The notes under the pieces: model-generated
Told to the model about the DNA's origin: nothing
The model's input: only the letters and a program-made list of their open reading frames with translations
Database searches by the model: none
NCBI GenBank assembly: GCA_016860985.1
Contig: BOKM01000001.1
Location: 856,040 to 920,039 of the forward strand
DNA: 64,000 bases
DNA from: Patescibacteria group bacterium
GTDB taxonomy: Bacteria > Patescibacteriota > Dojkabacteria > GCA-002793355
Direction of reading: 5' to 3'
Part shown: positions 9,886-55,875 of the stretch, piece after piece
Layout: every line of letters starts with the position of its first letter
How positions within the stretch are numbered: position 1 is the first letter of the stretch
Position numbers and translations under genes: made by a program

Positions 9886-10752
9886 ATGTTTGGAATCATA
9901 TATGGTTTATTAGCTGCTGTTGGTCAAGGGTTGGGCTATGCAGTGTTAAAGAAAAGCTTTTCTGAACGCCCTGCTTCCTTGGCATATTTTTACGATATGC
10001 TGCTAGGTATTCTTATTTGGGTACCTATTTCATTGGTGTTAGGAATTCAGTGGGATATGTTGTCTACTGTTTTTTGGTATGCCTTACTCAGTGCGTTGCT
10101 GGCAGAAGCTTTTGTCTTTTTTGTATTGTCAAAAGGTGATATTTCGCTGACTCAACCGGTATTTTCGACCTATCCATTGTTTACGTTACTTTTCTCTCGT
10201 GTTGTTAACGGAGATATTTTATCTTTACCAGTGATTATATCAATCGTTTTTGTAATGGGTGGAATCATAATTCTTGCTTTCCCGGCCACTTTCGATAAAG
10301 CAGAACTAAAAAAACGTGCCCTACTATTGTGGCCACTTGCCGGAGCTATTGCTGTTGGAATATCGGATAGTGTGTCAAAAAACATATTGGATAAAACTTC
10401 AACAGGCACTTTCCTGTTCTCCCTTGCCTTTGCACAGATTCCAGTAGCAATTGGTTATTTGTGGGCGGAAAAACAGAAGCTTACTGATGTCGTCGACATG
10501 TTCAGAAACTACAAAACCTATCTTTACTCGTTTCTGGGTTCTTTTTTTATTGTAAGTTCACTCGTATTCTTCTGGCTTGCCTTTACGTATACCTCGGCAT
10601 CGATTGCGTCTCCACTTACTGCGACATATGTGGTCTTTGCCCTACTCTTTGGTACACTCATTGTCAAAGAAAAAGTAGCGCGAAAGGATATCATCGGAAT
10701 AGTTATCACTGTACTCGGCGTATTAGCCCTCAGTTTTCTTGTTGCTCAATAG
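9886..10752 (+). CDS. EamA/DMT-superfamily membrane transporter
   Basis: 288 aa, ~10 TM segments in two halves; TAG stop. Confidence 0.55.
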   Translation: MFGIIYGLLAAVGQGLGYAVLKKSFSERPASLAYFYDMLLGILIWVPISLVLGIQWDMLSTVFWYALLSALLAEAFVFFVLSKGDISLTQPVFSTYPLFTLLFSRVVNGDILSLPVIISIVFVMGGIIILAFPATFDKAELKKRALLLWPLAGAIAVGISDSVSKNILDKTSTGTFLFSLAFAQIPVAIGYLWAEKQKLTDVVDMFRNYKTYLYSFLGSFFIVSSLVFFWLAFTYTSASIASPLTATYVVFALLFGTLIVKEKVARKDIIGIVITVLGVLALSFLVAQ

Positions 10753-12530: not shown

Positions 12531-13415
12531 CTATTTTTTTGCGACGCGTTCAAATTCCTTTGCCACTTCTTCTAATCCTTTCTGGTTTAGGGAGGTGCAA
12601 TCGGTAAACCATGTGTCAGAAGTATCAAGTCCGTGACCTTCGAAGTGCTGCGCAAGACCAACGATTTTAATCGACTGTGGGTAGATGTTGCTTAGTTCAA
12701 GAATCGCTTCGTTTATTTCATTAACTGCACTCTTTGTATATTCAGTACCGTAATTCGGGATTAATCCCTTACAGAGTGTTGCATCGCCAGTTCCTCCTAA
12801 TGGATCAGGAAGTGTTGCAAGCAGTACGGTGTATCCCTCGGGAAATACTCCAGGACGGGCGGAAGTGAGATCTAAAAAGGTCGAAATTTCTTTTACAACT
12901 TTTGTAGCAATACTGGTAATTGACTCTTTGTTCGTAATCCCGTTCAGCAATGTATTTTGACCTGTAATCGCTGTAAAATAGACATGTTCGGTAATTGGCT
13001 TTGTAAGGTCGTTATAACCAAGAACCGCTTGGTCCCGAAGTGAGGAAATAGTTCTCCCTTGTTCCGCTCTGCTGGTTACTTCAATTTTTCTTGATTGCTT
13101 GGTTTGCAAATAGTCAGAAACTCGTTGCGTATACAGGGGGACGCCATCGGTCGATTTTTCGCCAATTGATATGACTGCTTGAACTGTTGAAGAAGAGGCG
13201 CTCGAAAAGAGTGATACGTCAAACTGGTTCTGCCATAAAAACATTCCTCCACCGGTAAGAACTGCCCCAATTGCGAGAATCCCAATCGATTGAGTGACTC
13301 TTTTTTTTGTTGTCGCAGCCATCATATAACACGAAAGCAAAATTATATGCCGTTGCCCTAGTGTACAACATTTCAGGTGCTTGGCATAGTATTGATTTCT
13401 TTTCAGATTGTGCAA
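12531..13415 (-). CDS. secreted/membrane-anchored hypothetical protein
   Basis: 294-aa ORF; probable start at internal MMAATTKKRVTQSIGILAIGAVL signal-anchor; no clear family. Confidence 0.35.
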   Translation of the reverse strand: MHNLKRNQYYAKHLKCCTLGQRHIILLSCYMMAATTKKRVTQSIGILAIGAVLTGGGMFLWQNQFDVSLFSSASSSTVQAVISIGEKSTDGVPLYTQRVSDYLQTKQSRKIEVTSRAEQGRTISSLRDQAVLGYNDLTKPITEHVYFTAITGQNTLLNGITNKESITSIATKVVKEISTFLDLTSARPGVFPEGYTVLLATLPDPLGGTGDATLCKGLIPNYGTEYTKSAVNEINEAILELSNIYPQSIKIVGLAQHFEGHGLDTSDTWFTDCTSLNQKGLEEVAKEFERVAKK

Positions 13416-13424
13416 GAATGATAA

Positions 13425-14042
13425 ATGAAAAAAACTGCTCTGTTTTTTGTTGCTGTGCTATTTGCAACCACTATTTTTACTACTTCTTCAGTTGCTGCGG
13501 CAACGAAGGAGTTTGGAAGTGAAACGGTTATCCCACTGGTAAATCCGGATGATACTAGTGCAGATAATCAAGTCAGTGGTACGGTTGAGGATAGTGCAGG
13601 AAATTTCTTCTATCGACATACAAATCAAAATCCAGACAAATTGCGAAAAATCGCGTCGGACGGAACTCATGCATGGACGATAGACTTACCTGCAACAGAA
13701 ATAAATGGGTCTCGTTTAGTACCGGATAATCAAGGGGGAATTTATTATCTTTATTATAAAAATGACCCTTCTCCTTCAGTACAAAGTATGTATTTAACAC
13801 ATTATAATGCAAACGGTACAGCAAATTTTACAGAAACGGAGTTGTTGAATACGGCATTTTCGGTACAGACGGAATACGCAGCCGCCAGATCTAATGGAGA
13901 TTTGTATATCATATTTGCAGAACGCAACCATGGAGATTCATTCGGAAAGGTTCTCAAGTTCAAGGTAATGGTTGTAAACACAAGCGGAGCGATCCAAAAT
14001 ACAATGACCACAAGGACCCTAAACCCTACTGAGCATCGATAG
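13425..14042 (+). CDS. secreted protein, N-terminal segment (signal peptide) of a larger interrupted surface protein
   Basis: MKKTALFFVAVLFATTIFTTSSVAAATKE signal peptide; terminates at TAG 14040-14042 in the same frame as the next ORF. Confidence 0.5.
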   Translation: MKKTALFFVAVLFATTIFTTSSVAAATKEFGSETVIPLVNPDDTSADNQVSGTVEDSAGNFFYRHTNQNPDKLRKIASDGTHAWTIDLPATEINGSRLVPDNQGGIYYLYYKNDPSPSVQSMYLTHYNANGTANFTETELLNTAFSVQTEYAAARSNGDLYIIFAERNHGDSFGKVLKFKVMVVNTSGAIQNTMTTRTLNPTEHR

Positions 14043-14102
14043 TGTACAAACAGAGGGACTTCGTACGAAGTTCCATACGACCTCCCCTATAATGGTGGTG
14101 TT

Positions 14103-16637
14103 TTGTGGAGTGCCTGTTGGGAATGGTGTCAAACACAGTTCTTATCAACTCCAGGTACGTGTCAATATAATGCTGATGGTCCTCGAAATTGTTGGGTTAA
14201 TGAATTTCCTGCTGGTGGTGTAGATAACTGTAGTTGGAGCGATTTTGGAAGTGCACCACCCTATTCCGGCTATTCTGGAATGACACAATCTCAAGAAACA
14301 TCAATTGCCGAAACCTTCTTGTCATACAATACACTTGATAATGTCTACCCCATGCTAAGTATACAAAAGGCAGTTTCTGTGAGTGATGGTCTCATTCTCT
14401 ACTATTACCTTTACGAAATGGATTATGACACTACCCCCTCTACCAATACGGCGAGTTATTACATTCAAAAACTTGATGCGACTGGGGAACCTCAATTTGC
14501 AGGCAGGGGAATTGATGTGACTGCTATTCAAGCAGTGAGCGAAATTGCGGATGTGCATGTTTACGAAGATGGTATCGTCACAATCGGAAATTACGATACG
14601 GATCTAGATGGTTATGAGGATACGGTAAAAATGCAGAAATACGATTTCAATTTGACTCCTGCATTCCCCGGAGATGGCGTTGAAGTCTTTCAGCATATTG
14701 ATCCTGCAGTTGGAGTCTACGCGTATTCCACCATGTCTGGCAGTAAAGTAGGCACCTTAATCGAGCTTTGGCATGATTCAATTCCAGCGTCTGGAAATGT
14801 ATATAAGGTTTATACTCAGACAATGGATTTGCTTGGGAATAAGCTCCTTGATACCAATGGTGTTCTTATTGCCGATAGCTCTGATAGTCCAGAGCCAGAA
14901 TATGCATGGGATATTTACCCCGATAATAACGGTGGATTTTACTCATTGGTTTACTATCTTGCGTCTACGCCAAGTCCTGATCGAGTATTTAGGCTTACGC
15001 AAGTAACATCATCAAATGAGATGAAATATTCAACTATTCGAGGGCTACAACTCCCCATTAGTGACAATGATGGATCTCGTATGGTAGTTACTGGCACAAC
15101 GCCATATATATTCGCCTACGGTTTTGGCCCGTATTTCCAAAAAACATATGCGCTGCGTGATGTTTATCAGGTAGACCTTGCAGATGGCTGGACTGCCATT
15201 AATGTAGAAAATGACCGTAACGTCGAAGCAAGTTCAGACTATGGTGCAGATGATGCTACTGTCGAATTGCATATCAAAGTTGGAGGAGAATTAGTTGCTG
15301 GCCCGACTATAGATTTAACTGCCGATAGAAACTGGCTGACTGTCGGAGGGAGTGTTGATGCACCAAATTACAAGAGTATCTTGTTTAATCTCTCAAATGC
15401 AGCGGGAGTAACGGCAGGGCAAAATGTAATGTATGTTCCAAGTCACGCAGATCATCCGAATGTTCGTGTCTGCCCAGGGGCAATAAGTGGGTTTGAAGTG
15501 ATTACTGCTGATTGTGCTGATGGAGTAAATTTCGACGACGGTGATACTCGCACTGTAACGTATCAGTCTGGTGATGCATCAATAACGGCAACAAAAGTAA
15601 CTGTTGATAGTGCTCCATATTGGAAGTTAGTCGGAGCAAAAGGAACAGGGGCTGTAAGCGGTACTTATCCTACTGCGTCTGCGAGTGTTCCTACAGTAAC
15701 GAGTGACAGCGTGGTCGGAATTATTAGTAGTGCAGCCACAGTAAACGGAAATGTCACTAGTGATGGCGGCTCTGCCATCACCGAACGAGGTGCGGTGTAT
15801 TCGAGTACCTCAACTACTCCAACGCTTTCGGACACAAAACAAATTGCGTCTGGTACCACAGGAGCTATGACCTTTGCCATAGTCGGCTTGCAATCTGGTA
15901 CACACTACTACCTGCGAGCGTACGCCACCAATGCAGAGGGGACTGCCTACGGGAGTGTAATTGAGTTTGACACTCCAGCATCGGCAGGTACCAGCCCAAC
16001 AGTAACCACAGGAGCCGTAAGTAGCATCGGAGAAACGGCGGCAACAGTGGCGGGAGATGTAACCTCAGATGGAGGAGAAACCATTACTGAACGAGGTATT
16101 GTGTTCTCCTCATCGAACAATACGCCAACAACGGCAAACGGAAAGTTTACGGCAGCAGGAACGACTGGTGCCTACACGGCAACTTTGACCGGCCTGACGC
16201 TCAATACGATCTACTACGCGAGAGCGTATGCGATTAACTCAGAAGGAACAAGCTACGGGAGTGTGGTAACGTTTAAAACGTTAGAACCGGCAGCCCTTCG
16301 AAGCGTGTACTTTACCTTCAGTAAGTTCCGCTACAACAAGTATGCATCGCCAACGGCACTTCGTTCTGGAGATACGGCATATATCAAGAACTACAACACA
16401 AGCAAGATTAAACTGATACAGGTATTCTTGTACGACTATGCGAAGAAAGGGAACCAAGGGTTTACCAAGTCAAGAGTAACGACGACCTCGATGTTCCTCA
16501 GAACTAATTACAACCTTCCGACGGGTAAGCGATATGCCTACGTAATGAAGTTCCAAGACAAGGCAACAGGGATTGTAGCCACCAAATACTTTGTGGTGTA
16601 CACGACCAAAACATGGAATGGGCAGAGTACGCTGTAG
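14103..16637 (+). CDS. large surface protein with tandem ~90-aa beta-sandwich (FN3-like) repeats; open frame actually begins at 14043 right after the in-frame TAG
   Basis: 844-aa ORF lacking its own signal peptide; two tandem repeats (…TSDGGSAITERGAVYSSTSTTPT…THYYLRAYATNAEGTAYGSVIEFDT / …TSDGGETITERGIVFSSSNNTPT…TIYYARAYAINSEGTSYGSVVTFKT). Confidence 0.55.
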   Translation: MWSACWEWCQTQFLSTPGTCQYNADGPRNCWVNEFPAGGVDNCSWSDFGSAPPYSGYSGMTQSQETSIAETFLSYNTLDNVYPMLSIQKAVSVSDGLILYYYLYEMDYDTTPSTNTASYYIQKLDATGEPQFAGRGIDVTAIQAVSEIADVHVYEDGIVTIGNYDTDLDGYEDTVKMQKYDFNLTPAFPGDGVEVFQHIDPAVGVYAYSTMSGSKVGTLIELWHDSIPASGNVYKVYTQTMDLLGNKLLDTNGVLIADSSDSPEPEYAWDIYPDNNGGFYSLVYYLASTPSPDRVFRLTQVTSSNEMKYSTIRGLQLPISDNDGSRMVVTGTTPYIFAYGFGPYFQKTYALRDVYQVDLADGWTAINVENDRNVEASSDYGADDATVELHIKVGGELVAGPTIDLTADRNWLTVGGSVDAPNYKSILFNLSNAAGVTAGQNVMYVPSHADHPNVRVCPGAISGFEVITADCADGVNFDDGDTRTVTYQSGDASITATKVTVDSAPYWKLVGAKGTGAVSGTYPTASASVPTVTSDSVVGIISSAATVNGNVTSDGGSAITERGAVYSSTSTTPTLSDTKQIASGTTGAMTFAIVGLQSGTHYYLRAYATNAEGTAYGSVIEFDTPASAGTSPTVTTGAVSSIGETAATVAGDVTSDGGETITERGIVFSSSNNTPTTANGKFTAAGTTGAYTATLTGLTLNTIYYARAYAINSEGTSYGSVVTFKTLEPAALRSVYFTFSKFRYNKYASPTALRSGDTAYIKNYNTSKIKLIQVFLYDYAKKGNQGFTKSRVTTTSMFLRTNYNLPTGKRYAYVMKFQDKATGIVATKYFVVYTTKTWNGQSTL

Positions 16638-16676: not shown

Positions 16677-17993
16677 ATGCGTTTTCTGATTGTAACTCCA
16701 GAAATGGAGGACACAAATTATCGTGGAGTGCAGTTTGTCACCAAGCATGTGCTTAGGGGGCTGTCTGAACAGGGGCACGAAGTAGTCTTGTTAACTAGCC
16801 ACCCGAAGGTCAAAATAAACGTTAAATCAGAAAAGTTACGATGGCGTGTACTCAATACTTATTTTCGGCAGTACTTACAGATAGGTGCGCAGTTAACTAA
16901 AAGAATGGCTCCGCGGGCAGGTACTTTTACTAGTATTTTCAAATTCCTTGTTGCTCTTTTCAGAAAGGCTCCAGTTATTGTAGTGGATAAAACACAGACC
17001 TCAGGATTGAACTTAGTAAAATACATCGATAAAGCTGTTAATCTTCCTTTCTTTTACCGAATGGCAGTTGCAATGCCAAAATTTTTTAGAAAACTAGCTA
17101 TCGAAAAAATTGCAAAACAGGTAAAAGCAGATGTCGTTTACTATACCTTTCCATTAGCTGTTCCTAAACTCTCTTCTAGCAAAGTTATCCATATTATCTA
17201 CGACCTTATCCCATACGAAATAACTGAGGAACCGGTAGAAAACGAATGGCTAAGTAAACTTGCAAAACGAATTGATTACGTTTCTCATAACTCTGATCTT
17301 ATTTTTACTATTTCTCAGGATTCTGAAAACAAGATAAAAGAAGTTGAGCCGCATGCAAAGGTTATGAATATTGGCGCAGCTATGTCGGCCTTCGAATACG
17401 AGCTCGCTGGGTACACTCATGACTCCCCCGTTCTCATAAAAAACAACCTCGTTGGAAAACCTTACCTCCTCTTTATTTCTTCAATCGAAAGACGAAAGAA
17501 CGTTCACCGATTGCTGCAAGCTTTCGTTTCTATTTCCGATAAGACTGATGCTTCACTCGTTATTGTTGGAAACAAAACAGGCGCGTTTAAAGGAATTGCC
17601 GAGGAATTGGATGGAGCTCCGAAAAGTGTCAAAAAGCGAGTTATATTTACAGGTTGGGCATCTGAGTACGACAAATACTCTCTTTTGAAGAATTGTGTTG
17701 CCCTCGTTAACCCCACTCTGTATGAAGGTTTTGGTTTGCAGCCTCTTGAAGCAATGTTAAATCACATTCCTGCAGTTTCTAGTGTTGCAGGTGCGCTTGC
17801 CGAAGTTTGTGGTGACGCTGTCCTAAAGATTCAAGATCCTTATTCTGTACCTGAAATCGCCCATGCCCTACTTCGAATTCTTGAAGATAAAAATCTTCGG
17901 CAAGAGTTGGTCAAAAAAGGAAACATTCAGTCTCAAAAATATACTGAGCAGGTAATGTACAAGCGAATCAAAGAGGCTCTTGAAGCACTCTAG
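16677..17993 (+). CDS. glycosyltransferase family 1 (GT4-like)
   Basis: 438 aa; C-terminal EGFGLQPLEAM and surrounding GT-B fold motifs. Confidence 0.75.
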   Translation: MRFLIVTPEMEDTNYRGVQFVTKHVLRGLSEQGHEVVLLTSHPKVKINVKSEKLRWRVLNTYFRQYLQIGAQLTKRMAPRAGTFTSIFKFLVALFRKAPVIVVDKTQTSGLNLVKYIDKAVNLPFFYRMAVAMPKFFRKLAIEKIAKQVKADVVYYTFPLAVPKLSSSKVIHIIYDLIPYEITEEPVENEWLSKLAKRIDYVSHNSDLIFTISQDSENKIKEVEPHAKVMNIGAAMSAFEYELAGYTHDSPVLIKNNLVGKPYLLFISSIERRKNVHRLLQAFVSISDKTDASLVIVGNKTGAFKGIAEELDGAPKSVKKRVIFTGWASEYDKYSLLKNCVALVNPTLYEGFGLQPLEAMLNHIPAVSSVAGALAEVCGDAVLKIQDPYSVPEIAHALLRILEDKNLRQELVKKGNIQSQKYTEQVMYKRIKEALEAL

Positions 17994-18727
17994 ATCGTGT
18001 TGGTTGCGCTTTTGTAAACCTCAATGCCCTCTTTTACTGAGTTGTAGGTAGTTACTTTGCCTTGATTTACAATAAGTAATTTTTTGCAAAATCCTTCAAT
18101 TGTTGGTAAAGAATGCGAGATAAGCAGCAGTGTTTTTCCTTGTTGCTGTAACCGTTGAAAAATCGCTTTACTCTTTTCTTGAAATGCCAAATCACCTACT
18201 GAGAATACTTCGTCAAGTAGGTAAATGTCTGCTTCTGACATAAAAGCGATAGAAAAAGCGAGCCGTACTTGCATTCCAGACGAATAATTTTTTAGAGGCA
18301 AGTCAATAAACCGTTCTAGTTCAGCAAATTCGACAATTTCATCAAATTTCTTTTCTAAAAATTTGCGGGACATTCCAAGTATGATGCCGTTAAGAAAAAC
18401 ATTCTCTCTCCCGGTTAATTCTGGGTTAAAACCGACCCCAAGCTCAAGGAAGGGAACAACCTTACCTTGAATGATTATCTTTCCAGAATCGGGGAGATAA
18501 ATTGATGCAAGCAACTTTAGGAGTGTTGACTTTCCAGCACCATTGACTCCTACAATTCCAACGGTATCACCATTTTCAATTTCGAAACTACAGTTATCGA
18601 GTACTTTTAATGTATCCTGCTCTCTTTTTGTAGCAAAAGGGTTTGACAGAAATTCGGTAATCGATGTTTGTTTACGGTGTGGAATCTTAAACGACTTCGA
18701 GAGATTTTTGACTGTTATGGCAGGCAT
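17990..18727 (-). CDS. ABC transporter ATP-binding protein, polysaccharide/teichoic-acid exporter type (Wzt/TagH-like)
   Basis: Walker A GIVGVNGAGKSTLLKLL, ABC signature YSSGMQVRLAFSIA, Walker B IYLLDEV; 245 aa without C-terminal carbohydrate-binding domain. Confidence 0.8.
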   Translation of the reverse strand: MPAITVKNLSKSFKIPHRKQTSITEFLSNPFATKREQDTLKVLDNCSFEIENGDTVGIVGVNGAGKSTLLKLLASIYLPDSGKIIIQGKVVPFLELGVGFNPELTGRENVFLNGIILGMSRKFLEKKFDEIVEFAELERFIDLPLKNYSSGMQVRLAFSIAFMSEADIYLLDEVFSVGDLAFQEKSKAIFQRLQQQGKTLLLISHSLPTIEGFCKKLLIVNQGKVTTYNSVKEGIEVYKSATNTI

Positions 18728-19488
18728 TAGAAAAATTCAGCGATTTTAGGTAAGGTCTTTTTGAACACAACGTACCCTGCAAAAGTAAAGACAACGATGA
18801 CGGCAGATAGTACAAGTACAGAGACCAAATTCGGTGCATCAACAGATGGGAGTAATCCACTTCGAATAAGTGTGAGCAACGTAACCAACGGATTGAAGTT
18901 TTTGATTAAGTTTGCAATGTGAGGAGGGAGCTGTTCAAGTGAATAGAAGACTGGTGTTGCCCAGAAAATGAGTTGTAGGAGCAACTCGATAAGATGCTTT
19001 ATGTCGTGGTATTTAATACTAATAATACTTGTATAGAAAGCAATTCCTAGTAAGAACAAAGATAGTAGCAGAAATCCAATTATGAAATTGTACCAATGAG
19101 CCGAAAAAAGCGTCTCTTTAGAAGCAATTCTAAAAGAAAAGTATATTCCAAGATTTATTAAAAAGTTTACCATTGCGATAGCAATGGCACTAAGTACTAC
19201 TATCTCTCTCGGAAAATTAACCTTAAGAATTATGTGTGCTTTATTGAAGAGTGATTGCAGCCCAAAGTTCACGCCTTCGGTAAAGTAGCTCAACGTTAAA
19301 ATCCCGAGCAAAAGATACGAAGCATAGTTTTCAGTATTGCCAAAAAGAGAGGTCCAAATGGTGTGTAAGACGACGTAATACGAGAGTGGTTTAAGTATCA
19401 CCCACAAAAATCCAAGATATGAATGCTTGTAACGAAGCTTGAAATCAGTCACAAAGAACTCTCTGAGGAGGTCAGCGTAATTTCCCAT
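18727..19488 (-). CDS. ABC-2 type exporter permease (Wzm/TagG-like)
   Basis: 253 aa, 6 TM segments, ATGA-coupled to the ATPase gene downstream. Confidence 0.7.
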   Translation of the reverse strand: MGNYADLLREFFVTDFKLRYKHSYLGFLWVILKPLSYYVVLHTIWTSLFGNTENYASYLLLGILTLSYFTEGVNFGLQSLFNKAHIILKVNFPREIVVLSAIAIAMVNFLINLGIYFSFRIASKETLFSAHWYNFIIGFLLLSLFLLGIAFYTSIISIKYHDIKHLIELLLQLIFWATPVFYSLEQLPPHIANLIKNFNPLVTLLTLIRSGLLPSVDAPNLVSVLVLSAVIVVFTFAGYVVFKKTLPKIAEFF

Positions 19489-19551
19489 TATTCGATTGTA
19501 CTATACTTACATATTATTTATAATCGAACATAATTTTGGTGTGTGTAAGAA

Positions 19552-20469
19552 ATGTTTAACAAATATATCAATAAAGCAAAAAAATTTGCAATCGAAATGC
19601 TCCATGGTACCAAAACGATTCAATCTCGCTTGGAAAATCTAGAAAGGATGTTGGAGTTATTCAGAAACGAATACAAGTTCTCACCAAGAAATGTCTTTAT
19701 GATTAATGAAAATATTGGAATTACTAAAATTGAAACGGGACAGAAGCTCTTTATTGACCGAAATGACTTATCACTTGCCCCGCACTTGGTACTTGATGGC
19801 AGATGGGAACCCTCAGTAGCAAAATGGCTAATGGAAAACTATGACACTGCTTCAACATTTCTTGATGTAGGGGCAAACTTTGGATATTTCTCAATATATT
19901 TAGCATCTGTAACAGATAATACTCGCGGAGGTAAAGTAATTGCGATTGAGCCAAATCCGCATATGTCTGACCTCATTCGTAAAAGTGTTTCAATTAATGG
20001 ATTTGATAATCGAGTTAAAATAGTTGCGTGTGCTGTCGGCGATGAAAAGTGCGAACTACCTTTGTATGAATCAAAAGATGGTTTACTTGGGAGCACGACA
20101 CTTCGTAAGACTAATAGTTACATAAGACAAACTAAGTTGGTCGAAGTCGATACGCTAGATTCTATTATTGCAAATGAAAAAATTGAAAACATCGGACTAA
20201 TCAAAATGGATATTGAAGGATTTGAAGAAAAGGCATTCAAAGGAATGGCTAAATTAATTGCAAATAATAAATCACTTAAAATTTTGTTAGAGTTCTCTCC
20301 ATTACTATATGAAAAACCAATCATATTCTTTACAAAGATACTAGACAGTTTTACCTATATTGCGGTGCTTGATGAGGACGGAAAGGAAATACCAATTGAC
20401 AGATACGAGCAGATTGTAGAATATTCAAGACTTGGTCATTGTGACATTGTTATGTACAACAAATCATGA
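19552..20469 (+). CDS. FkbM-family SAM-dependent methyltransferase
   Basis: FLDVGANFGYFSIY SAM-binding motif and overall FkbM-domain layout; stop overlaps next start (ATGA). Confidence 0.6.
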   Translation: MFNKYINKAKKFAIEMLHGTKTIQSRLENLERMLELFRNEYKFSPRNVFMINENIGITKIETGQKLFIDRNDLSLAPHLVLDGRWEPSVAKWLMENYDTASTFLDVGANFGYFSIYLASVTDNTRGGKVIAIEPNPHMSDLIRKSVSINGFDNRVKIVACAVGDEKCELPLYESKDGLLGSTTLRKTNSYIRQTKLVEVDTLDSIIANEKIENIGLIKMDIEGFEEKAFKGMAKLIANNKSLKILLEFSPLLYEKPIIFFTKILDSFTYIAVLDEDGKEIPIDRYEQIVEYSRLGHCDIVMYNKS

Positions 20470-21317
20470 TCTACTTCTCGCATATCCCCAAAACTGCTGG
20501 AACAACACTCAGAAGTTTCATATCGCAGTTTTTCCCAGAAGATAGAATATTTTCAGCTCAATTATGGAATGAACTGGAAAATCCAGAAATGACTGATTGG
20601 AGTAAATATGATTTTGTTTCGGGACATTTTGGCCATGCTTTGACAACGTACCTACCAGATAATACTAAAACCATAACAATGCTCAGAGACCCAATTCAAA
20701 GGACTGTCTCGCAATATAATCATGTGGTCTCTGATCGCTATTTTGAACATAAAATTGGTAAAAGAAGAATTAAAGATATTGGAAATGGGGACATGAATTT
20801 AATGTTACAAGATGCTGAATGTGCTGACTATTTTTCAAATATCCAGCTCAAGTTCATTGCCCTTTCGTGTAAACCAGTTGAACGGGGTATGGTATCTTTC
20901 GGAAACTGGGAAGAAACAATTATAAATAACTCAAAGGCTCAACTGTTAGATTTGGCATTAAATAGAGTATCCAAATACTATTTCTTGGGTATTCAGGAAT
21001 TTTTTGAACAATCATATTTGTTACTAAGTTACAAAGAAGGGTTCCATCCATATTTTGATGGAGAAAGACGAATGGTGATGGAAAAAAAATTACAGTTTAA
21101 TAGCATTAAGGATGAACTGCTTGAAAAACTTTACGAAATAAACGACCTCGATTTGAAATTATATAGTTATTCTGTGGAAATTTTCAAAAAAGATTATAAC
21201 AATATGTGCGAAAAAATATGTAGTAGTTTAGGAGTTTCTATTCCTGATTTCAGTGATACCGCAAGTATAAAAGATTTATTAGTAAAGTATCAAAAGATTA
21301 ATAAGAATATCCAATGA
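20466..21317 (+). CDS. sulfotransferase-family protein
   Basis: N-terminal IYFSHIPKTAGTTLRS matches the HIPKTGGT PAPS-binding (5'-PSB) motif of Sulfotransfer_2/3-type enzymes. Confidence 0.5.
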   Translation: MIYFSHIPKTAGTTLRSFISQFFPEDRIFSAQLWNELENPEMTDWSKYDFVSGHFGHALTTYLPDNTKTITMLRDPIQRTVSQYNHVVSDRYFEHKIGKRRIKDIGNGDMNLMLQDAECADYFSNIQLKFIALSCKPVERGMVSFGNWEETIINNSKAQLLDLALNRVSKYYFLGIQEFFEQSYLLLSYKEGFHPYFDGERRMVMEKKLQFNSIKDELLEKLYEINDLDLKLYSYSVEIFKKDYNNMCEKICSSLGVSIPDFSDTASIKDLLVKYQKINKNIQ

Positions 21318-21366
21318 CATGTGCCCTTGAACAATACCTGCTTTATACTCTATAATACGAATTAGT

Positions 21367-21438
21367 CCAGAGGTAGCTCAATGGTAGAGCAGGAGACTGT
21401 AAATCTCTTGGTTAGGGGTTCAAGTCCCTTCCTCTGGA
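21367..21438 (+). tRNA. tRNA with anticodon GUA (Tyr by anticodon), class I architecture (5-nt variable loop), C1:G72, A73, no encoded CCA
   Basis: Hand-folded: acceptor CCAGAGG/CCTCTGG, T8A9, D-arm GCTC-AATGGTA-GAGC, anticodon arm GGAGA-CTGTAAA-TCTCT (GACTGTAAATC as in E. coli tRNA-Tyr), variable TGGTT, T-arm AGGGG-TTCAAGT-CCCTT, discriminator A, followed by T8 run. Confidence 0.75.
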
Positions 21439-21451
21439 TTTTTTTTATGCC

Positions 21452-22399
21452 CTACTCTCCCTTCCCTAAATTGCAGTCAAATGAGAGTGTCGCCTCAGTA
21501 ACGTTTGGAGGTGCCGTAAATTTGAACTTTGGTGGTATTTTGTCTGTATAGGCAATAGTTTGTCCTTTTGAGTCTCGAGCACGCACAGAAAATTTAACTT
21601 GCAGCCCTGTTAAATTTTTGATGTTTGTCGTCCTCGAGTTTAGGCTAAATGTCAGTAATGAGGATTTTTCCATCTCGCTCTTTAGTATTGTGGTACTTAC
21701 ACAGGGTTCAATTTGGCTCCCCGCAGCAGCGTGATAAGCACAACTCCGAACCAAATAATCGGTAATTCGTTCATCGCACGTTGCTGAAGTAATTGCACTG
21801 TTACCTGTAGGTTTGGTGACCGTTACTTTTAGGTTGACTCTATGCTTTGAAGATGCGGGATATGGTGTGGGTGTTGGCGTTGGCTTAACACCAAGGTTAC
21901 AGAAATAATTCAATACAAACGTTGCGGTCCCGTTTGCTGCTACGAACGGTCCCTGGATGTTCTGTTTTTTCGCAATCATTCTTCCGTTTAGATCGTAAGC
22001 TTGAATCGTATAATAGGCACGGTAATAAGAATCTCCAACATTATTCGCTATTTCGTCTCTGTCCCGATTGTCAACTCTGAAGTCTAGTACCATTGGTTCA
22101 AACTCATTGGTCCCTAATTGTATGGTTTTTGATGTAGAACCGATGATTCGTTTCCCAACTTCTTTATACACGTACGCAGTTACTTTATATTCCTTAACAG
22201 TGCCACATATTTCGGGTACTGAATTATCGATAATAAATGTTGTAGGAAGCGTAAATTTTGTAGTTGCTCTCCCAAATGCAGCATTCGGGTCAACATTAAA
22301 AAGTTGTGTGGTAACAAAATAACCAAGTACAAATACTGAAAGTAGCGCTGCTAGTGATACTACGATTTTCTTTACTGGGGAGGTGTTTTGTTTTTTCAT
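21452..22399 (-). CDS. secreted hypothetical protein (two domains joined by PTPTPTP linker)
   Basis: 315 aa; N-terminal TM/signal (IVVSLAALLSVFVLGYFV); no family recognised. Confidence 0.4.
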   Translation of the reverse strand: MKKQNTSPVKKIVVSLAALLSVFVLGYFVTTQLFNVDPNAAFGRATTKFTLPTTFIIDNSVPEICGTVKEYKVTAYVYKEVGKRIIGSTSKTIQLGTNEFEPMVLDFRVDNRDRDEIANNVGDSYYRAYYTIQAYDLNGRMIAKKQNIQGPFVAANGTATFVLNYFCNLGVKPTPTPTPYPASSKHRVNLKVTVTKPTGNSAITSATCDERITDYLVRSCAYHAAAGSQIEPCVSTTILKSEMEKSSLLTFSLNSRTTNIKNLTGLQVKFSVRARDSKGQTIAYTDKIPPKFKFTAPPNVTEATLSFDCNLGKGE

Positions 22400-22437
22400 A
22401 CATCACTATATGACAAAGGAATTATGAATACAATAAT

Positions 22438-24258
22438 TTATTGCTTATTGAGTGAAGAAATAGCGCGAAGAGCGATATCCTTCGAAGTCGCGAAATCCAA
22501 AGGACCTATTAATTCTTCTGGGCAGGCTTCTCGTACCACATCTGGTATATCTTTATATTCTCGATATATTCTATTTTTTGGTAGGACAATTCCTAGTGCG
22601 CGCATGTCAATTTCATCTTGTGCATTTACCGCATCCAATCGGAAGAGCGTTAATTCCCTTCCATCTTTTGCAAACGCGCGGAACAGTACTCCTCTAAAAC
22701 TACTAGTTTCAATCTGTACCGAAATTAGTCGTAGGTTAGTTTCTAATCGCTCATCTTCTGCGTATTCAATAGCTCGAATAGTTTCTGATGGAGAAAGAAA
22801 GCCTTTCTTTTCACAGCGGACAAATATCGATCGCGTTTTATATTCTTCAGTTGTTCTTGCTCGTTGCGAAGCGGCTCCAACAGTTATAGTATTACTTCCC
22901 CAATCCTTGTGAACAGTAAACCCTGAGCGAAATTTTTCTACGATTGCCCATGTGGTACCACCATTCGTGTCGCCAATTCCATATGAAAGGAGCCGCCCCC
23001 ACGTAAGCTTTTCTGAAGTCCTTCCCCTAATATCATCTGATAAATATATCGAATAGATACTTCGGTGATGCAGTAAATCAAGTGTAGAAAGAAGTAGGTG
23101 TGCACTTTCAGTAAAATCAACTCTTCCGCTTTCTTGGGGAGATAATCCGTTCGCATTTTCCATTGCGACTCTTACTGATGCAACATCTGGTGTCTGTTCA
23201 ATTTTTACTCCGCGTTGCGCGAGTAACGCTAATCCTTGTGAAATGGCGGGATCTTCTTGTTCTACAAAGGCGGGAATGGGAAGGTCCTTTTTTATAAATT
23301 CTATAAGGTGTTTGGCACCTTCCACCGGCGATTCTCTGTATCTTCGTAGGTAAACAAATACATCCGATTCAAAGCCTTGAGCTATCGTACCTGGTGAAGC
23401 GACCATGGTAGGATTCCTATCTGGTGCGATTTGTGGTCCAACGGGACTTGCCCACAAGTTCGGGAGCATTTGTCGTAGTCTTTTTGTTGGTGATGATGCG
23501 GTCGCAGGCATATCTGGGGCTTCGGGCGAAGTAATCGGTGCCCGTGGTTGTTGATACCCGTGAATGTCGGGGTGCAGCATGCCATTGGAAGATGTGTCCA
23601 TCCACGCGTAACGCACCGCTTTTTGATCTTGTTGGTTTTGAGCGTAGATTATTGTGTCATAAGCCAATCGGGTGTCAGCAGGTGCTGATTTATCTTTTGC
23701 TCTGGGGGCTGTCTTGGCCTTTATAAAAATTGTGGGAACATCAGTACCCTCTTTGGGTGGAGTCCTTTGGATAAGTAGCCCAACTTTTTGAATGGAATAA
23801 TCGGGGTACCACTCTCCCACCTTCAAATCTGGATAAAAATCTGTTGGTGAGTCATCTCTTTTTTGCTTCAGTTGATAGGGTTTTATAACGATGGTAACAG
23901 AAAAATGCCCATAATCTACTGTGCTGCATCGGGCACGGTACTCCGTAAGCGGTGTGCGATGCGCAGGAGAAATCATAGTCGATTCTGGATATTCGTCTCT
24001 GTCCATATCGTAAATCCTTTTATTCTCTGCCTTTGGGTTAAAAACTTTCCATTTTGAGGTCGGAATAAGAGTATCGTCCTGTCCCAATGTTTCTGTAGTT
24101 GCTTCGAGTCCAAAATCGGCTGGCGGAAATCCAAATTCTTCGAGCACTCTACGTGCTTTATCGGTCACTTGCACCAGTGCAACCGTTTCTGCTTGTTCGT
24201 TGCGAACCACTTTCTTTTCTACTGGTTCAGGTCTAGCCGATGTTTTCCACAACTGCAT
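22438..24258 (-). CDS. large hypothetical protein (606 aa), compositionally atypical (GC-richer)
   Basis: Long uninterrupted ORF; no recognisable catalytic motif; local GC ~50% versus ~30-45% elsewhere. Confidence 0.45.
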   Translation of the reverse strand: MQLWKTSARPEPVEKKVVRNEQAETVALVQVTDKARRVLEEFGFPPADFGLEATTETLGQDDTLIPTSKWKVFNPKAENKRIYDMDRDEYPESTMISPAHRTPLTEYRARCSTVDYGHFSVTIVIKPYQLKQKRDDSPTDFYPDLKVGEWYPDYSIQKVGLLIQRTPPKEGTDVPTIFIKAKTAPRAKDKSAPADTRLAYDTIIYAQNQQDQKAVRYAWMDTSSNGMLHPDIHGYQQPRAPITSPEAPDMPATASSPTKRLRQMLPNLWASPVGPQIAPDRNPTMVASPGTIAQGFESDVFVYLRRYRESPVEGAKHLIEFIKKDLPIPAFVEQEDPAISQGLALLAQRGVKIEQTPDVASVRVAMENANGLSPQESGRVDFTESAHLLLSTLDLLHHRSIYSIYLSDDIRGRTSEKLTWGRLLSYGIGDTNGGTTWAIVEKFRSGFTVHKDWGSNTITVGAASQRARTTEEYKTRSIFVRCEKKGFLSPSETIRAIEYAEDERLETNLRLISVQIETSSFRGVLFRAFAKDGRELTLFRLDAVNAQDEIDMRALGIVLPKNRIYREYKDIPDVVREACPEELIGPLDFATSKDIALRAISSLNKQ

Positions 24259-25622: not shown

Positions 25623-28592
25623 TTGCTATACTGCCTCGTGGATACTGCCTTGTTATCTTTAGGAGTTGGTTTTGCAAATTTGTGTATTGGTGTCATTGTC
25701 CTTATTAGAGGAAATGGTGTGAAACTTGCCCGAGACTTCTTCGTACTTTCTTTTTTGTGTGGTTTATGGGCAGCATTTGATTACCTCTCTGCCTCATCGA
25801 ACTCCGCATATTTCGCTTGGTACTACGGAGGTTTTAGAACTGTTATGTCCTATGTTGCAGTCGTCTACTTATTAAAATTTGTGTTTCAGTATGTTGGCAA
25901 ATATTCTTCCATAGCAAAAGGTGTAGTTGGGCTTTTGCTTTTTATTTCTCTGGGGCTCTCCTATATCCGCTTTTTTACTCCATTACTAGTTCTTGAAATG
26001 ATTTATCGTAATGGGGAGTTTAGGATAATGCCGGGGCCACTTTATTTCGGTCCAGTTTCGGTAATGTTTGCACTCGCAATTATTTCTGGCTACTTCTTGT
26101 GGAGATACTACAAGGGACTTCAAACACATGAATCAAAAACAAAGGTTGGAATTATGTTGTTTGGCTCTTTTACCTCTATTATTATTGCGATAATCGCGTA
26201 TGGAGTATTACCATTATTTGGGATTGGTGGTACCAGCATTGGTGTCGGAGCAATGGGATTATTTCCCCTGTTTGTTGGATTATCAATACTTAGGTACGAC
26301 CTAGATACAAACCTATCGTTTACTGCCGGAAGTCTACGTTCAAAAATATTTTCTGCTGCAATGGCAGCAACTTTCTTTGTAATTATTCCTTCACTTATAC
26401 TTTTGAATGTAATTTTTGTACGAGATATTACTGTTCGAGGCAGTTTTCAGCTGAACGAAGATGTCATCGAAAAACGCGCTGTCATCAGTAATTATCTCAG
26501 TGACATTACGGCACGAGCACAAACTTTAGCGCAATCAGAAACGGATGAAATGACTAGTGAGCGTTTGCAGCATGAAATAGAAGAAAGTAAAGGTACCACG
26601 AGCGAGATCCTTACACTGTCTATTATAGATTCTTCCGGAAGTTCAATCGTTTCCGCCTATCCGCACAGCAGGGAATTAGAATCGTGGGTCGGTGACTTAT
26701 CATTAAAATCCGCTCAGTTACTTGGGGCTTACAATAGTGGAACTTCGATGATGCCTGTGGTTGCTGCTCCAATTCCATCTGGCGTTTATGCGGGGTACTA
26801 TTTTTTGGTTGGATTTGCGCCAACTGATTTCTATAGCGCAACTACGGAAGAGGCAATGTCATTGTTTAACACCTCTAAAGCGTACGTACTGGATAAACAG
26901 GGAGTACTAGTGACTCCTTATGGGAGTTATACGTCATTTATTGGCAGTAGTCAGAATGCTCCTACCAGGCATGTATCGTGCGAAGAACCTCTTAGCTCCG
27001 GGAGTTTCACTTTTTCGAAATATTTAGATGTAAGAGGTATTCCTGTAGTTGGGACCGGCGTACCGATTGCAAACAACGGTTGGTGTCTTATGGTTGAAGT
27101 AGATAAAGAAGAGATTGAAGCTACAAGTAGAACGATGATTGTCTCCACAATGGCGATTGGAATGTTAAGTGTTATTTTTGTAACTCTTGTAGCCGAATTA
27201 CTTGGAGCACTAATATCAAAACCAATCGGGCAGGTTAAAGAAGGTGTTGCAAGAATTATGTCAGGAGATTTTTCTACTCCTGTTGCTGTTGACACGCAAG
27301 ACGAGATTGGGGAACTTTCGCGTGCTTTTGACGAAATGACTGTAGAACTAAAAGATGCGCAAGAGAATATCACCGCAAAAGTTAGGTCGCAAACGCAAGA
27401 TCTTGAAGCGCAGCGAAGTGATTTGCTTAAACAGCAAAAGCAGATGATTTCTCTCCTCTCTGAATTAGAAGATGAAAAAGAAAGAACGGACATATTAGCG
27501 CGTGACCTAGAGAAATTTAAACAAGCTGCTGATGCTGCAAACGATCATATTGTAATCACTGACACAGAAGGTCGTATCATTTACGCAAATAAATCGGTTA
27601 AACGAATCACTGGTTTTGATCCAGAAGAAATACTTGGGCAAAAAGCAGGAAGTCGAGAGAACTGGGGCGGTCAAATGCCTTTAGCGTTTTACAAAAAGCT
27701 TTGGAAGACGATCAAAGTTGATAAGAAGCCGTTTAAGGGAGAAGTTACAAATAAGAAGAAAAATGGAATGTTGTATACTGTAGTTGCTTCAATTTCTCCT
27801 GTTAAGGACAATAAAGGTAACGTACTGTTCTTTATCGGTTTAGAACGAGATATTTCTAAAGAGAAGGAGATTGACAGAGCAAAGAGCGAGTTTGTTTCAT
27901 TGGCTTCTCATCAATTAAGAACGCCACTTTCGGCAATTAATTGGTATGCAGAGATGCTTATCGACGGAGATGCTGGAAAATTAAACAAAGAACAACAACA
28001 GTACGTCAAAGAAATTTATGATGGAAACCGTAGAATGGTCGATTTGGTAACGGCGCTTCTGAATGTTTCTCGGCTTGAACTTGGAACCTTTATGGTAGAG
28101 CCAACACTACAATCATTGCAAGATCTAGCCACTCAAGCGCTTAAAGAAATGGAACCAATGCGAAAGGCAAAGCAGATTAAGATTCACCAGCAATTTGATA
28201 AATGCGAGCCGCTCATGGTGGACAAAAAGCTTATGTATATAATCTTCCAGAATCTGATTTCGAATGCACTGAAATATACTCCTCAAAAAGGTGAAGTCAC
28301 AGTCTCGATACAAAAGAAATCAAAGTATATCAACATTAAAGTAGCTGATAATGGTATGGGAATTCCCAAAGAAGAGCTGCCAAAATTGTTCGAAAAGTTG
28401 TATCGAGCAAGTAACGCAAAAGAAAGTGCAACAGAAGGAACAGGACTTGGTTTGTACATTGTAAAAGCCATACTTGACGCAACCGAAGGGAAAATCGAAG
28501 TCGATTCTACCATTGGTAAAGGTTCTGTGTTTACAGTTAAAATTCCCTTGTCAGGAATGAAGCCAAAACTTGGTTCAAAGAAGCTAACTTAA
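25623..28592 (+). CDS. multidomain sensor histidine kinase (N-terminal 7-TM module, extracytoplasmic sensor, HAMP, coiled coil, PAS, HisKA, HATPase_c)
   Basis: 989 aa; PAS (DHIVITDTEGRIIYANKSVKRITGF), H-box SHQLRTPLSAI, G-boxes DNGMGIP / GTGLGL. Confidence 0.8.
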   Translation: MLYCLVDTALLSLGVGFANLCIGVIVLIRGNGVKLARDFFVLSFLCGLWAAFDYLSASSNSAYFAWYYGGFRTVMSYVAVVYLLKFVFQYVGKYSSIAKGVVGLLLFISLGLSYIRFFTPLLVLEMIYRNGEFRIMPGPLYFGPVSVMFALAIISGYFLWRYYKGLQTHESKTKVGIMLFGSFTSIIIAIIAYGVLPLFGIGGTSIGVGAMGLFPLFVGLSILRYDLDTNLSFTAGSLRSKIFSAAMAATFFVIIPSLILLNVIFVRDITVRGSFQLNEDVIEKRAVISNYLSDITARAQTLAQSETDEMTSERLQHEIEESKGTTSEILTLSIIDSSGSSIVSAYPHSRELESWVGDLSLKSAQLLGAYNSGTSMMPVVAAPIPSGVYAGYYFLVGFAPTDFYSATTEEAMSLFNTSKAYVLDKQGVLVTPYGSYTSFIGSSQNAPTRHVSCEEPLSSGSFTFSKYLDVRGIPVVGTGVPIANNGWCLMVEVDKEEIEATSRTMIVSTMAIGMLSVIFVTLVAELLGALISKPIGQVKEGVARIMSGDFSTPVAVDTQDEIGELSRAFDEMTVELKDAQENITAKVRSQTQDLEAQRSDLLKQQKQMISLLSELEDEKERTDILARDLEKFKQAADAANDHIVITDTEGRIIYANKSVKRITGFDPEEILGQKAGSRENWGGQMPLAFYKKLWKTIKVDKKPFKGEVTNKKKNGMLYTVVASISPVKDNKGNVLFFIGLERDISKEKEIDRAKSEFVSLASHQLRTPLSAINWYAEMLIDGDAGKLNKEQQQYVKEIYDGNRRMVDLVTALLNVSRLELGTFMVEPTLQSLQDLATQALKEMEPMRKAKQIKIHQQFDKCEPLMVDKKLMYIIFQNLISNALKYTPQKGEVTVSIQKKSKYINIKVADNGMGIPKEELPKLFEKLYRASNAKESATEGTGLGLYIVKAILDATEGKIEVDSTIGKGSVFTVKIPLSGMKPKLGSKKLT

Positions 28593-28603
28593 TAATTTTG
28601 TAA

Positions 28604-28984
28604 GTGAAAATCGTTCTAGTGGTCGAAGACTACACCCCTCTCTTTCGTGCGGTCAATGAAAAGTTTTTACGTTTCGGAATAACTGCGGTGCAAGTTGTCA
28701 GTTATGACGAAGCTACAAAATATCTGGTTGAACACGCAGAGAATATCGGTTTAGTTTGGTTAGATCACTACCTTATCGGAGAAAAAACAGGACTGGATGT
28801 ACTCGCATTCATGAAGGACAAGAATAATATGAAGGATATACCCGTTCTGGCAGTATCAAACGAGTCGAATCATAATCGAATGAAGCAGTACAAAGCGCTT
28901 GGTGCAAAAGAGTACTACATTAAAGTAGGAAACCGACTTGCAGAAATTGCAGAAGAAGCAAAAAAACTCTTATCTGTTGAGTAG
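28604..28984 (+). CDS. single-domain response-regulator receiver (CheY-like)
   Basis: 126 aa; KIVLVVED...VWLDHYL (phospho-acceptor Asp)...VLAVSNES...K; no output domain. Confidence 0.55.
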   Translation: MKIVLVVEDYTPLFRAVNEKFLRFGITAVQVVSYDEATKYLVEHAENIGLVWLDHYLIGEKTGLDVLAFMKDKNNMKDIPVLAVSNESNHNRMKQYKALGAKEYYIKVGNRLAEIAEEAKKLLSVE

Positions 28985-32886: not shown

Positions 32887-32887
32887 G

Positions 32888-51620: not shown

Positions 51621-51631
51621 TTACGAAAGAA

Positions 51632-54468: not shown

Positions 54469-54512
54469 TCTATTCTGAAACGTATTAAGGTATTTAACAT
54501 TGCTCAATTTAT

Positions 54513-55088: not shown

Positions 55089-55111
55089 GTCATTCGTTAG
55101 TTAACTCTGTT

Positions 55112-55873: not shown

Positions 55874-55875
55874 TT

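Follow-up and report, generated by a model that had tools for sequence, protein, structure and literature searches.

A recurrent gene cassette for a putatively methylated and sulfated exported glycoconjugate in Saccharibacteria and Dojkabacteria

Can a bacterium with a genome of about 1 Mb decorate an exported glycan with both methyl and sulfate groups, and would these groups then act as terminal caps? The question is raised by five clustered genes at positions 16,677 to 21,317 of a 64-kb stretch of DNA (in the following called the window) from a Patescibacteria group bacterium that is related to Saccharibacteria and probably depends on a host; it belongs to the candidate phyla radiation (CPR). 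The genes encode a GT4 glycosyltransferase, the ATPase and the permease of a Wzm/Wzt-type ABC exporter, an FkbM-family methyltransferase and a sulfotransferase. A first-pass annotation of the sequence had proposed this gene set and interpreted it as an ABC-transporter-dependent glycan locus with chain-terminating modifications. We found all five genes at their proposed positions, with matches in Pfam, NCBIfam and PDB (Table 1). In our judgement, the locus is probably a compact cassette for a surface glycoconjugate that carries methyl and sulfate groups and leaves the cell through the ABC exporter.

A recurrent cassette around a rare glycosyltransferase

From the gene layout, we suggest three transcription units. 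The GT4 gene and wzt are convergent and overlap by 4 bp. The wzt and wzm genes overlap by 1 bp and therefore form one operon. A 63-bp spacer separates wzm from the divergent methyltransferase gene, whose stop codon overlaps the start codon of the sulfotransferase gene within the sequence ATGA, so that these two genes are translationally coupled. A consensus scan of the locus for promoters and terminators yielded 14 sites against 14.0 expected from shuffled sequence; hence, the operon structure is deduced from the gene overlaps. The GT4 protein, the methyltransferase and the sulfotransferase are soluble and lack hydrophobic segments, which are present in the Wzm-like permease. With an overlapping permease and ATPase pair next to a soluble GT4 protein, and family and PDB matches for each, the assignment as an ABC-transporter-type glycan locus was corroborated.

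The GT4 gene is the signature gene of the cassette. Its full-length homologues amount to about 11 clusters among 5.8 billion protein clusters, with 45–96% identity; beyond these, matches are restricted to the generic C-terminal GT4 domain. A search of genome contigs with the single GT4 protein gave no match and with a GT4 alignment two loci only, while a search of metagenome contigs with an alignment of the CPR GT4 proteins returned a single, spurious partial match. The loci compared were the window, L001–L003, L006, L007, L008, L009 (a Candidatus Saccharibacteria metagenome-assembled genome, MAG), L010, L013 (Candidatus Dojkabacteria) and L014. Eight of these, from Saccharibacteria and Dojkabacteria, were informative (the window, L006, L007, L008, L009, L010, L013 and L014), and all eight combine the GT4 gene with wzm and wzt, at least one methyltransferase gene and at least one sulfotransferase gene. 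The first-pass pairing of a methyltransferase with a sulfotransferase therefore stands, both as genes and in its linkage to the exporter; the terminal position assigned to their modifications is not supported, as discussed below.

Of the named relatives that share this gene order, L009 is the nearest; its histidyl-tRNA synthetase (HisRS) and enolase are 70% and 69% identical to those of the window. GT4 identity to the window declines from 90% in L006 and L007 to 68% in L008, 61% in L009 and 58% in L010. In L006, L007 and L008, respectively, enolase is 94, 94 and 88% identical to the window protein, Wzt 85, 85 and 78%, and Wzm 81, 81 and 74%. The corresponding values for the sulfotransferase are 60, 54 and 39%, and the methyltransferase is 65% and 66% identical in L006 and L007 and not orthologous in L008. 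Between close relatives, the methyltransferase and sulfotransferase genes change at about three times the rate of the adjacent genes. They also have a low GC content (0.345 and 0.326, compared with 0.411 for the window), which together with the fast divergence suggests diversifying selection or horizontal replacement. The modification genes are the variable, fast-evolving end of the cassette, as is usual for determinants of surface antigens. Just beyond this end, a tRNA-Tyr gene follows 3′ of the sulfotransferase gene in L006–L009 as it does in the window; throughout the Saccharibacteria loci, it marks where the cassette ends on the right.

The type of modification enzyme differs among the loci. 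An FkbM protein is encoded in the window, L006 and L007, and in L010 it is fused to a GT4 domain. At L008, L009 and L013 we found instead a Methyltransf_11-like protein of ~315 amino acids (51–60% mutually identical) that is unrelated to FkbM, and L014 carries two other class-I methyltransferases. The sulfotransferases fall into two subtypes, with the motifs HIPKTAGT and HLAKTGGT. Some related loci additionally possess genes for a GT2 glycosyltransferase and a nucleoside-diphosphate (NDP)-hexose dehydratase. That both functions are kept while the respective genes are swapped argues that methylation and sulfation both matter for the product, and the fusion of FkbM with a GT4 domain connects methylation with the glycan.

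The sulfotransferase and the supply of PAPS

The sulfotransferase matches Sulfotransfer_2 (PF03567) over residues 2–236 with 38.2 bits, above the cut-off of 22. Its 5′-phosphosulfate-binding (5′-PSB) loop HIPKTAGT occupies residues 6–13. When 25 and 40 homologues were aligned, the loop residues H6, P8, K9, T10 and G12 proved invariant. In the same alignments, T71, R74, P76 and S82 are invariant within the 3′-phosphate-binding (3′-PB) motif TMLRDPIQRTVS at residues 71–82, which includes LRDPIQRTVS, and H54, located in SGHFGH, is kept in at least 90% of the homologues. H54 aligns with the second His of the YHGH motif (GH of HGH) of the heparan sulfate 2-O-sulfotransferase (HS2ST), the catalytic base of that enzyme.

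A profile of the homologues, searched against PDB, identified the heparan sulfate 6-O-sulfotransferase HS6ST3 (5t03, E 1.4e-32) and HS2ST (4ndz and 3f5f, E 4e-13, of the order of 1e-13). The 5′-PSB loop was aligned with HIQKTGGT of HS6ST and VPKTAST of HS2ST, and the 3′-PB motif with LRDPVSRYLS and IRDPIERLVS, respectively. An AlphaFold2 (AF2) model of the protein (pLDDT 91.4, pTM 0.90) led to the same enzymes: the top seven Foldseek matches were HS6ST and HS2ST with bound 3′-phosphoadenosine 5′-phosphate (PAP; 5t03, 4ndz, 3f5f; probability 1.00), and all 50 of the 50 best matches were sulfotransferases, most of them solved with PAP or with the sulfate donor 3′-phosphoadenosine 5′-phosphosulfate (PAPS). 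The heparan sulfate enzymes are thus the best matches by profile and by fold, and share with the locus protein the PKTxGT 5′-PSB loop, the RDPxxRxxS 3′-PB motif and the GH catalytic motif. However, sequence identity is only 16–20% and the TM score about 0.58, and the animal enzymes are type-II membrane proteins of the Golgi, whereas the locus protein is soluble, bacterial and 283 amino acids long. The first-pass annotation had staked the sulfotransferase on its 3′-PB motif and other catalytic residues; with this motif, the 5′-PSB loop and the conserved His all in place, the absence-of-motif test did not refute it. Judged by sequence and modelled fold, we predict an intact sulfotransferase of the carbohydrate type.

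An identical protein is encoded on a 1,051,512-bp contig and in the NCBI assembly GCA_049325555.1, there under the label ‘MAG: sulfotransferase family 2 domain-containing protein [Patescibacteria group bacterium]’. The annotation of the single gene is therefore already public, and all five genes are of routinely annotated types.

Two more distant homologues lie in telling gene neighbourhoods. In Pseudomonas, the gene of a 34% identical homologue overlaps a gene for adenosine 5′-phosphosulfate (APS) kinase, and in Nitrosococcus oceani a homologue clusters with a permease-like gene (281 amino acids), an ABC ATPase, GT4, further sulfotransferases and a sulfatase. Both arrangements support a PAPS-dependent role of this sulfotransferase family in glycan clusters.

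The two loci are of interest in their own right. In the Pseudomonas azerbaijanoccidentalis chromosome (L011, 10001–11826), the homologue is 400 amino acids long, and the region holding the pair with the APS kinase is bordered by integrase and DNA methylase genes and by small phage-like open reading frames (ORFs); the pair may be a prophage-borne sulfation module. The cluster around Noc_0733 in N. oceani ATCC 19707 (L012, 6965–21488) comprises the permease-like and ABC ATPase genes, two GT4 genes, the sulfatase gene and no fewer than six genes for sulfotransferases, which belong to three Pfam families, and appears to be an uncharacterised locus for a heavily sulfated glycan in a nitrifier.

Several results weigh against an exported, methylated and sulfated glycoconjugate, the first of them concerning PAPS. 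Genes for ATP sulfurylase, CysD/N or APS kinase were not found in the 64-kb window and ~19 kb of flanking sequence (~10 kb past each end, altogether ~83 kb of the 1.05-Mb genome), nor, for seven related CPR loci, at distances of up to about 10 kb from the cassette. Three ORFs in L009 whose sizes resembled those of cysC, cysD and cysN turned out to encode a CYTH protein, a methyltransferase and GyrB. Co-located PAPS genes have been called a hallmark of sulfated-polysaccharide clusters (PMC11641403). The second point is that no priming phosphoglycosyltransferase was found in the same ~83 kb or in the ~10-kb surroundings of the related cassettes; with no primer nearby and a single glycosyltransferase, a long polymer is an uncertain product. 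Thirdly, the structural matches of the GT4 protein are generic, and the top ones (MshA, BshA and SPS) act on small acceptors. On the other side, BacA and MurG are encoded a short way beyond the window on its right, so that polyprenyl-phosphate carrier chemistry is present.

If no PAPS is made, the sulfotransferase-like protein might be a relic, bind another nucleotide or be non-catalytic, and no sulfation would take place. Besides the missing PAPS genes, the metabolic reduction of CPR genomes speaks for this view, as only some of them encode sat, cysC or cysN (PMC7906910, PMC12239599). Nevertheless, these are dozens of genomes (PMC7906910), and select soil Saccharibacteria have been predicted to perform steps of sulfate reduction (PMC10413278). 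Moreover, the PAPS search covered only about 8% of the genome. Nine CPR sulfotransferases that have diverged to 32–60% identity all keep a PSB-type loop, the RxPxxRxxS motif and the GH with the candidate catalytic His, which indicates purifying selection on catalysis. We therefore regard a lack of sulfation as unlikely.

PAPS might also be taken up. An EamA transporter gene of the drug/metabolite transporter (DMT) superfamily adjoins the LCP (LytR-CpsA-Psr) gene upstream of the locus, and its product also matches the Triose-phosphate Transporter (TPT) family. The DMT superfamily includes nucleotide-sugar and PAPS carriers of eukaryotes. This neighbour is kept in L006 and L007, a 287-amino-acid ORF occupies the same position in L010, and it is absent in L008 and L009. 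A link of the EamA transporter to PAPS uptake is speculative, and the presence of a sulfotransferase in L008 and L009 without an EamA neighbour weighs against it.

In the library searched, we found no paper linking Saccharibacteria to sulfotransferases or sulfated glycans, nothing relevant on Wzt together with sulfotransferases, and only general statements on PAPS genes in Saccharibacteria.

Export and the capping question

Both exporter subunits resemble polymer exporters. For the Wzt-like ATPase, the NCBIfam matches were Wzt/RfbE of galactan export (2e-55) and TagH (2e-46), and the best PDB matches the nucleotide-binding domain (NBD) of Aquifex aeolicus Wzt (6amx/8dku), TarH (6jbh) and TagH. 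The Wzm-like permease matched galactan Wzm (4.8e-17) and KpsM (1.4e-7) in NCBIfam, and in PDB A. aeolicus Wzm (6m96/6oih), Mycobacterium tuberculosis Wzm (9qfx) and TarG (6jbh). The ATPase aligns only with residues 12–227 of the 404-amino-acid A. aeolicus Wzt; it consists of the NBD without a C-terminal carbohydrate-binding domain, as the first-pass annotation had correctly noticed. Wzt is likewise short (242–247 amino acids) in all related loci.

This bears on the idea, put forward in the first-pass annotation after the example of WbdD, that the chain is capped at its non-reducing end by methyl and/or sulfate, which would halt polymerisation and fix the chain length; RfbT and WsaE would be further models for it. 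Methyl modification in ABC-dependent glycan pathways is textbook knowledge, and in the characterised cap-dependent systems the C-terminal domain of Wzt couples capping to export. Here, the Wzt protein of 245 amino acids lacks a cap-binding domain. Pfam and NCBIfam searches with the locus proteins found no kinase domain, a coiled-coil ruler like that of WbdD is lacking, and the single-domain methyltransferase has only ~85 residues N-terminal to its catalytic domain. Furthermore, the closest solved sulfotransferases, HS6ST and HS2ST, modify internal residues of a chain.

The methyltransferase itself provides an argument in favour of capping. It is a member of the FkbM family (PF05050, 69.5 bits, cut-off 22.7; TIGR01444, 102.9 bits, cut-off 37.7, E 2e-29; PDB match 2py6 FkbM) that also passes the gathering cut-off of the V_cholerae_RfbT family (PF05575) with 36.1 against 27.9 bits. 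RfbT, the Ogawa-determining methyltransferase of Vibrio cholerae O1, is likewise tied to an ABC-exported glycan and methylates the terminal residue of this O-antigen. The match is, however, partial (profile positions 62–207 of 286) and stays far below the score reached with the generic FkbM model. Two further points would fit: the FkbM-GT4 fusion in L010 resembles fused terminator-polymerases such as WsaE, and one glycosyltransferase with two modifying enzymes makes a homopolymer with a decorated end plausible. Given the short Wzt and the lack of anything WbdD-like, we no longer follow the first-pass annotation in this respect and consider terminal capping with chain-length control unlikely.

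A single glycosyltransferase and the lack of a primer or polymerase gene in the locus could also point to a product that is not a polymer, namely a small, sulfated and methylated glycolipid or oligosaccharide, by analogy with Nod factors or mycobacterial sulfoglycolipids. Such an exported glycoconjugate might play a role in the contact with a host bacterium. The AF2 model of the GT4 protein (pLDDT 89.6) matched the PDB folds of MshA, sucrose-phosphate synthase (SPS), BshA, PimA and ManT, the mannosyltransferase of mycobacterial methylmannose polysaccharide, about equally well. MshA, BshA, SPS and PimA, the top folds, act on small acceptors. These fold neighbours are generic, so neither the donor nor the acceptor can be deduced from them. 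(A weak ‘GT4-conflict’ Pfam match was below its cut-off and was not taken as evidence for a defence system.) The ATPase also matches NodI, but more weakly (1e-27) than the polymer exporters, to which Wzt and Wzm are far closer, and the permease has no NodJ match. The addition of GT2 and NDP-hexose dehydratase genes in related loci is typical of polysaccharide clusters, and the nearest solved sulfotransferases act on polysaccharides. A small glycoconjugate thus appears to us a doubtful product of this locus.

We favour the following sequence of events for the exported, methylated and sulfated glycoconjugate. On the cytoplasmic side of the membrane, the product of a gene outside the locus would make a lipid-linked primer, probably on polyprenyl phosphate. 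The GT4 protein would glycosylate this primer with help from further enzymes encoded elsewhere; related loci add a GT2. Still in the cytoplasm, the FkbM protein would O-methylate the glycan with S-adenosylmethionine (SAM) and the family-2 sulfotransferase would O-sulfate it with PAPS. Wzm/Wzt would then move the finished lipid-linked glycan across the membrane; as the Wzt lacks a cap-reading domain, a terminal cap probably does not control this step. Outside, the product of a gene beyond the cassette would transfer the glycan to an acceptor, with the LCP protein (to peptidoglycan) and a Wzy_C-type protein (to protein or lipid) as candidates within the window. In this scheme, we observed the gene identities, the motifs and modelled fold of the sulfotransferase, the missing membrane segments of the three soluble enzymes, the NBD-only Wzt and the gene linkage across eight loci; the lipid carrier, the sugar, where methyl and sulfate are placed (at the end or within the chain), the acceptor and the source of PAPS are inferred.

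Neighbouring genes, significance and comparison with known systems

The genes around the cassette include possible partners for these last steps (Table 1). The LCP protein, with one N-terminal membrane anchor, has the domain predicted by the first-pass annotation, but its gene is not immediately upstream as claimed there: 6.8 kb separate it from the GT4 gene, with genes for EamA, HisRS, a TrpR-like protein, a hypothetical protein and a large secreted protein in between. The LCP gene has the same relative position in L006–L010 and is absent near the Dojkabacteria cassette L013. The large secreted protein, described earlier as a giant repeat protein, is indeed a neighbour and has 1070 amino acids when intact, but in the window it is split into 205 and 844 amino acids by an in-frame TGA at 14,040–14,042, which reads TGG (Trp) in GCA_049325555.1 (L002). 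This TGA could be a strain-level nonsense polymorphism, a sign of a pseudogene or an assembly error. Over 3.2 kb, 61 substitutions distinguish the two assemblies, and they cluster in the part that encodes the C-terminal repeats. The gene is absent from this slot in L006–L008, while L015 has a homologue of 40% identity there. The LCP gene and the gene of the large secreted protein are therefore neighbours outside the conserved cassette. A membrane-anchored protein of 294 amino acids, by comparison, is kept in L006, L007, L008, L010 and L015 (83–42% identity) and may belong functionally to the system.

Table 1 Positions of the locus genes and of neighbouring features in the window
Feature	Position	Strand	Size and evidence
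GT4 (GT-B, retaining-type) glycosyltransferase	16677–17993	+	438 aa; Pfam Glycos_transf_1 E 6e-26
Wzt/TagH-type ABC ATPase	17990–18727	-	245 aa; ABC_tran E 3.5e-22
Wzm/TagG-type ABC-2 permease	18727–19488	-	253 aa; ABC2_membrane E 7.6e-8
FkbM-family SAM-dependent methyltransferase	19552–20469	+	305 aa; Methyltransf_21 E 5e-19
Family-2 carbohydrate-type, predicted PAPS-dependent O-sulfotransferase	20466–21317	+	283 aa; Sulfotransfer_2 E 2.4e-9
tRNA-Tyr(GTA)	21366–21439	+	ARAGORN, Rfam
Wzy_C (O-antigen-ligase-like) polytopic membrane protein	1614–3164	-	516 aa; PF04932 E 1e-11; many hydrophobic segments
LCP (LytR-CpsA-Psr) protein, one N-terminal membrane anchor	8425–9864	+	PF03816 E 1e-31
EamA/DMT transporter	9886–10752	+	also matches TPT family
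Membrane-anchored protein without family match	12531–13415	-	294 aa; between TrpR-like gene and GT4 side
Large secreted protein, signal-like N-terminus, Fn3-like C-terminal modules	13425–16637	+	weak fn3 and BT0360-like matches
Variable slot after tRNA-Tyr	21452–24258	-	two genes, see text
Histidine kinase and stand-alone receiver	25623–28984		7TM-HAMP-PAS kinase
Type IV pilus genes, first group	about 29020–34555		
ManC-like sugar-1-phosphate nucleotidyltransferase	34964–36058	-	NTP_transferase and ManC_GMP_beta-helix
Type IV pilus genes, second group	49761–57704		

The Wzy_C protein could act on the exported glycan as an O-oligosaccharyltransferase or ligase. Transfer of glycans to protein by Wzy_C-type enzymes is known from WsaB, PglL and PilO, and the window harbours two groups of type IV pilus genes, whose pilins would be candidate acceptors. 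The ManC-like enzyme possibly supplies GDP-mannose or another NDP-sugar; in L009, its orthologue directly follows enolase, near the cassette. Along with the type IV pilus genes and LCP, the window carries a Mur ligase gene, features typical of Saccharibacteria-like genomes.

Downstream of tRNA-Tyr lies a variable slot, occupied in the window by a secreted protein of 315 amino acids with a PTPTPTP linker and a 606-amino-acid protein without family match, in L006 and L007 by a tRNA_bind protein of 115 amino acids, and in L008 by a second sulfotransferase-like gene. Insertions may occur preferentially at this site next to tRNA-Tyr. A histidine kinase with seven-transmembrane (7TM), HAMP and PAS domains and a stand-alone receiver adjoin enolase a little downstream of the cassette; both are kept in L006 and L007, and the kinase only in L008.

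Attachment to host bacteria is the way of life of Saccharibacteria and other members of the CPR, and their surface is the interface. To our knowledge, the surface chemistry of these bacteria is almost wholly uncharted. With genetic tools now existing for some Saccharibacteria, the conserved cassette is a concrete target for knockout tests of CPR surface chemistry, and the source of PAPS in an organism with a ~1-Mb genome is a sharp metabolic question that it raises. One far-reaching answer would be a CPR-specific surface-glycan system that is sulfated with PAPS from the host and mediates attachment of the epibiont to its host or evasion of phages. The reduced genome would then be unable to make PAPS, the EamA carrier would be one possible route for it, and an anionic, methylated glycan would be displayed on the wall, the pilins or a surface protein. 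The fast evolution and low GC content of the modification genes fit a serotype-like, diversifying determinant. We nevertheless give this scenario as a whole little credence. If the genome instead encodes sat and cysC, the locus is one more sulfated-polysaccharide cluster. Few sulfated bacterial glycans have, as far as we know, been characterised experimentally, and a CPR example, if true, would extend this short list.

Among known systems, the polymannose O-antigens E. coli O8/O9a share with the locus one or more transferases of the GT4 family, in E. coli the mannosyltransferases WbdA/B/C, a SAM-dependent methyltransferase, Wzm/Wzt and a ManC-like enzyme in the locus region. In contrast to the locus, they have the kinase-methyltransferase WbdD with its coiled coil and a Wzt with a cap-binding domain. 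The locus has an FkbM-type methyltransferase, an added sulfotransferase and, because an LCP protein is present, probably a monoderm envelope.

The best exporter matches, including the short Wzt/TagH-type ATPase, are to wall teichoic acid TagGH/TarGH and mycobacterial galactan Wzm-Wzt (PMC13018209). The teichoic acid pathway includes LCP proteins and the galactan pathway Lcp1, and the conserved surroundings of the locus likewise hold a gene for a candidate LCP ligase. Different from them, the locus lacks TagO, TagA, TagB, TagF or GlfT-type enzymes, and in place of D-alanine, glycosyl or arabinan its glycan would bear methyl and sulfate.

In the S-layer glycan system of Geobacillus stearothermophilus (WsaE, Wzm/Wzt, WsaB), WsaE is a methyltransferase-rhamnosyltransferase and WsaB an O-oligosaccharyltransferase of the Wzy_C type. 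Both systems have in common an ABC-dependent glycan with O-methylation (predicted for the locus) in a monoderm (a probable one for the locus) and a methyltransferase-glycosyltransferase fusion (in L010); genes for a Wzy_C-type and a large secreted protein are also found nearby. They differ in that the locus has no rml genes, its Wzy_C gene is 13.5 kb away and its Wzt is short. The rhizobial Nod-factor system (NodS, NodH, NodIJ) has the same functional trio of methyltransferase, PAPS sulfotransferase and ABC-2 exporter, but the exporter of the locus is far closer to Wzt, TagH and Wzm than to NodI/NodJ, NodC, NodB and NodA are lacking, and the glycosyltransferase is of family GT4 and not GT2.

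ABC-transporter-dependent clusters with sulfotransferases have already been described, for an ABC-dependent sulfated capsule of Vibrio sp. KMM 8419 (PMC11641403) and in cyanobacterial ABC-type clusters (PMC8205485). As in the locus, glycosyltransferases and PAPS-type sulfotransferases (PF03567, PF00685, PF13469) are encoded beside an ABC-2 exporter, and sulfation is presumed to precede export. The Vibrio cluster, however, has its own copies of cysNDC and KpsMTED for a diderm envelope, whereas the locus consists of five genes with an added methyltransferase, without PAPS genes in the ~83 kb searched, with an LCP ligase in the window and in a CPR host with a ~1-Mb genome. What is new compared with these clusters is the comparative result: four functions recur together, with exchanged modification enzymes, in a cassette centred on a rare GT4. 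This build, both conserved and modular, raises the locus above a routine example, as do its CPR host and the question of its PAPS supply.

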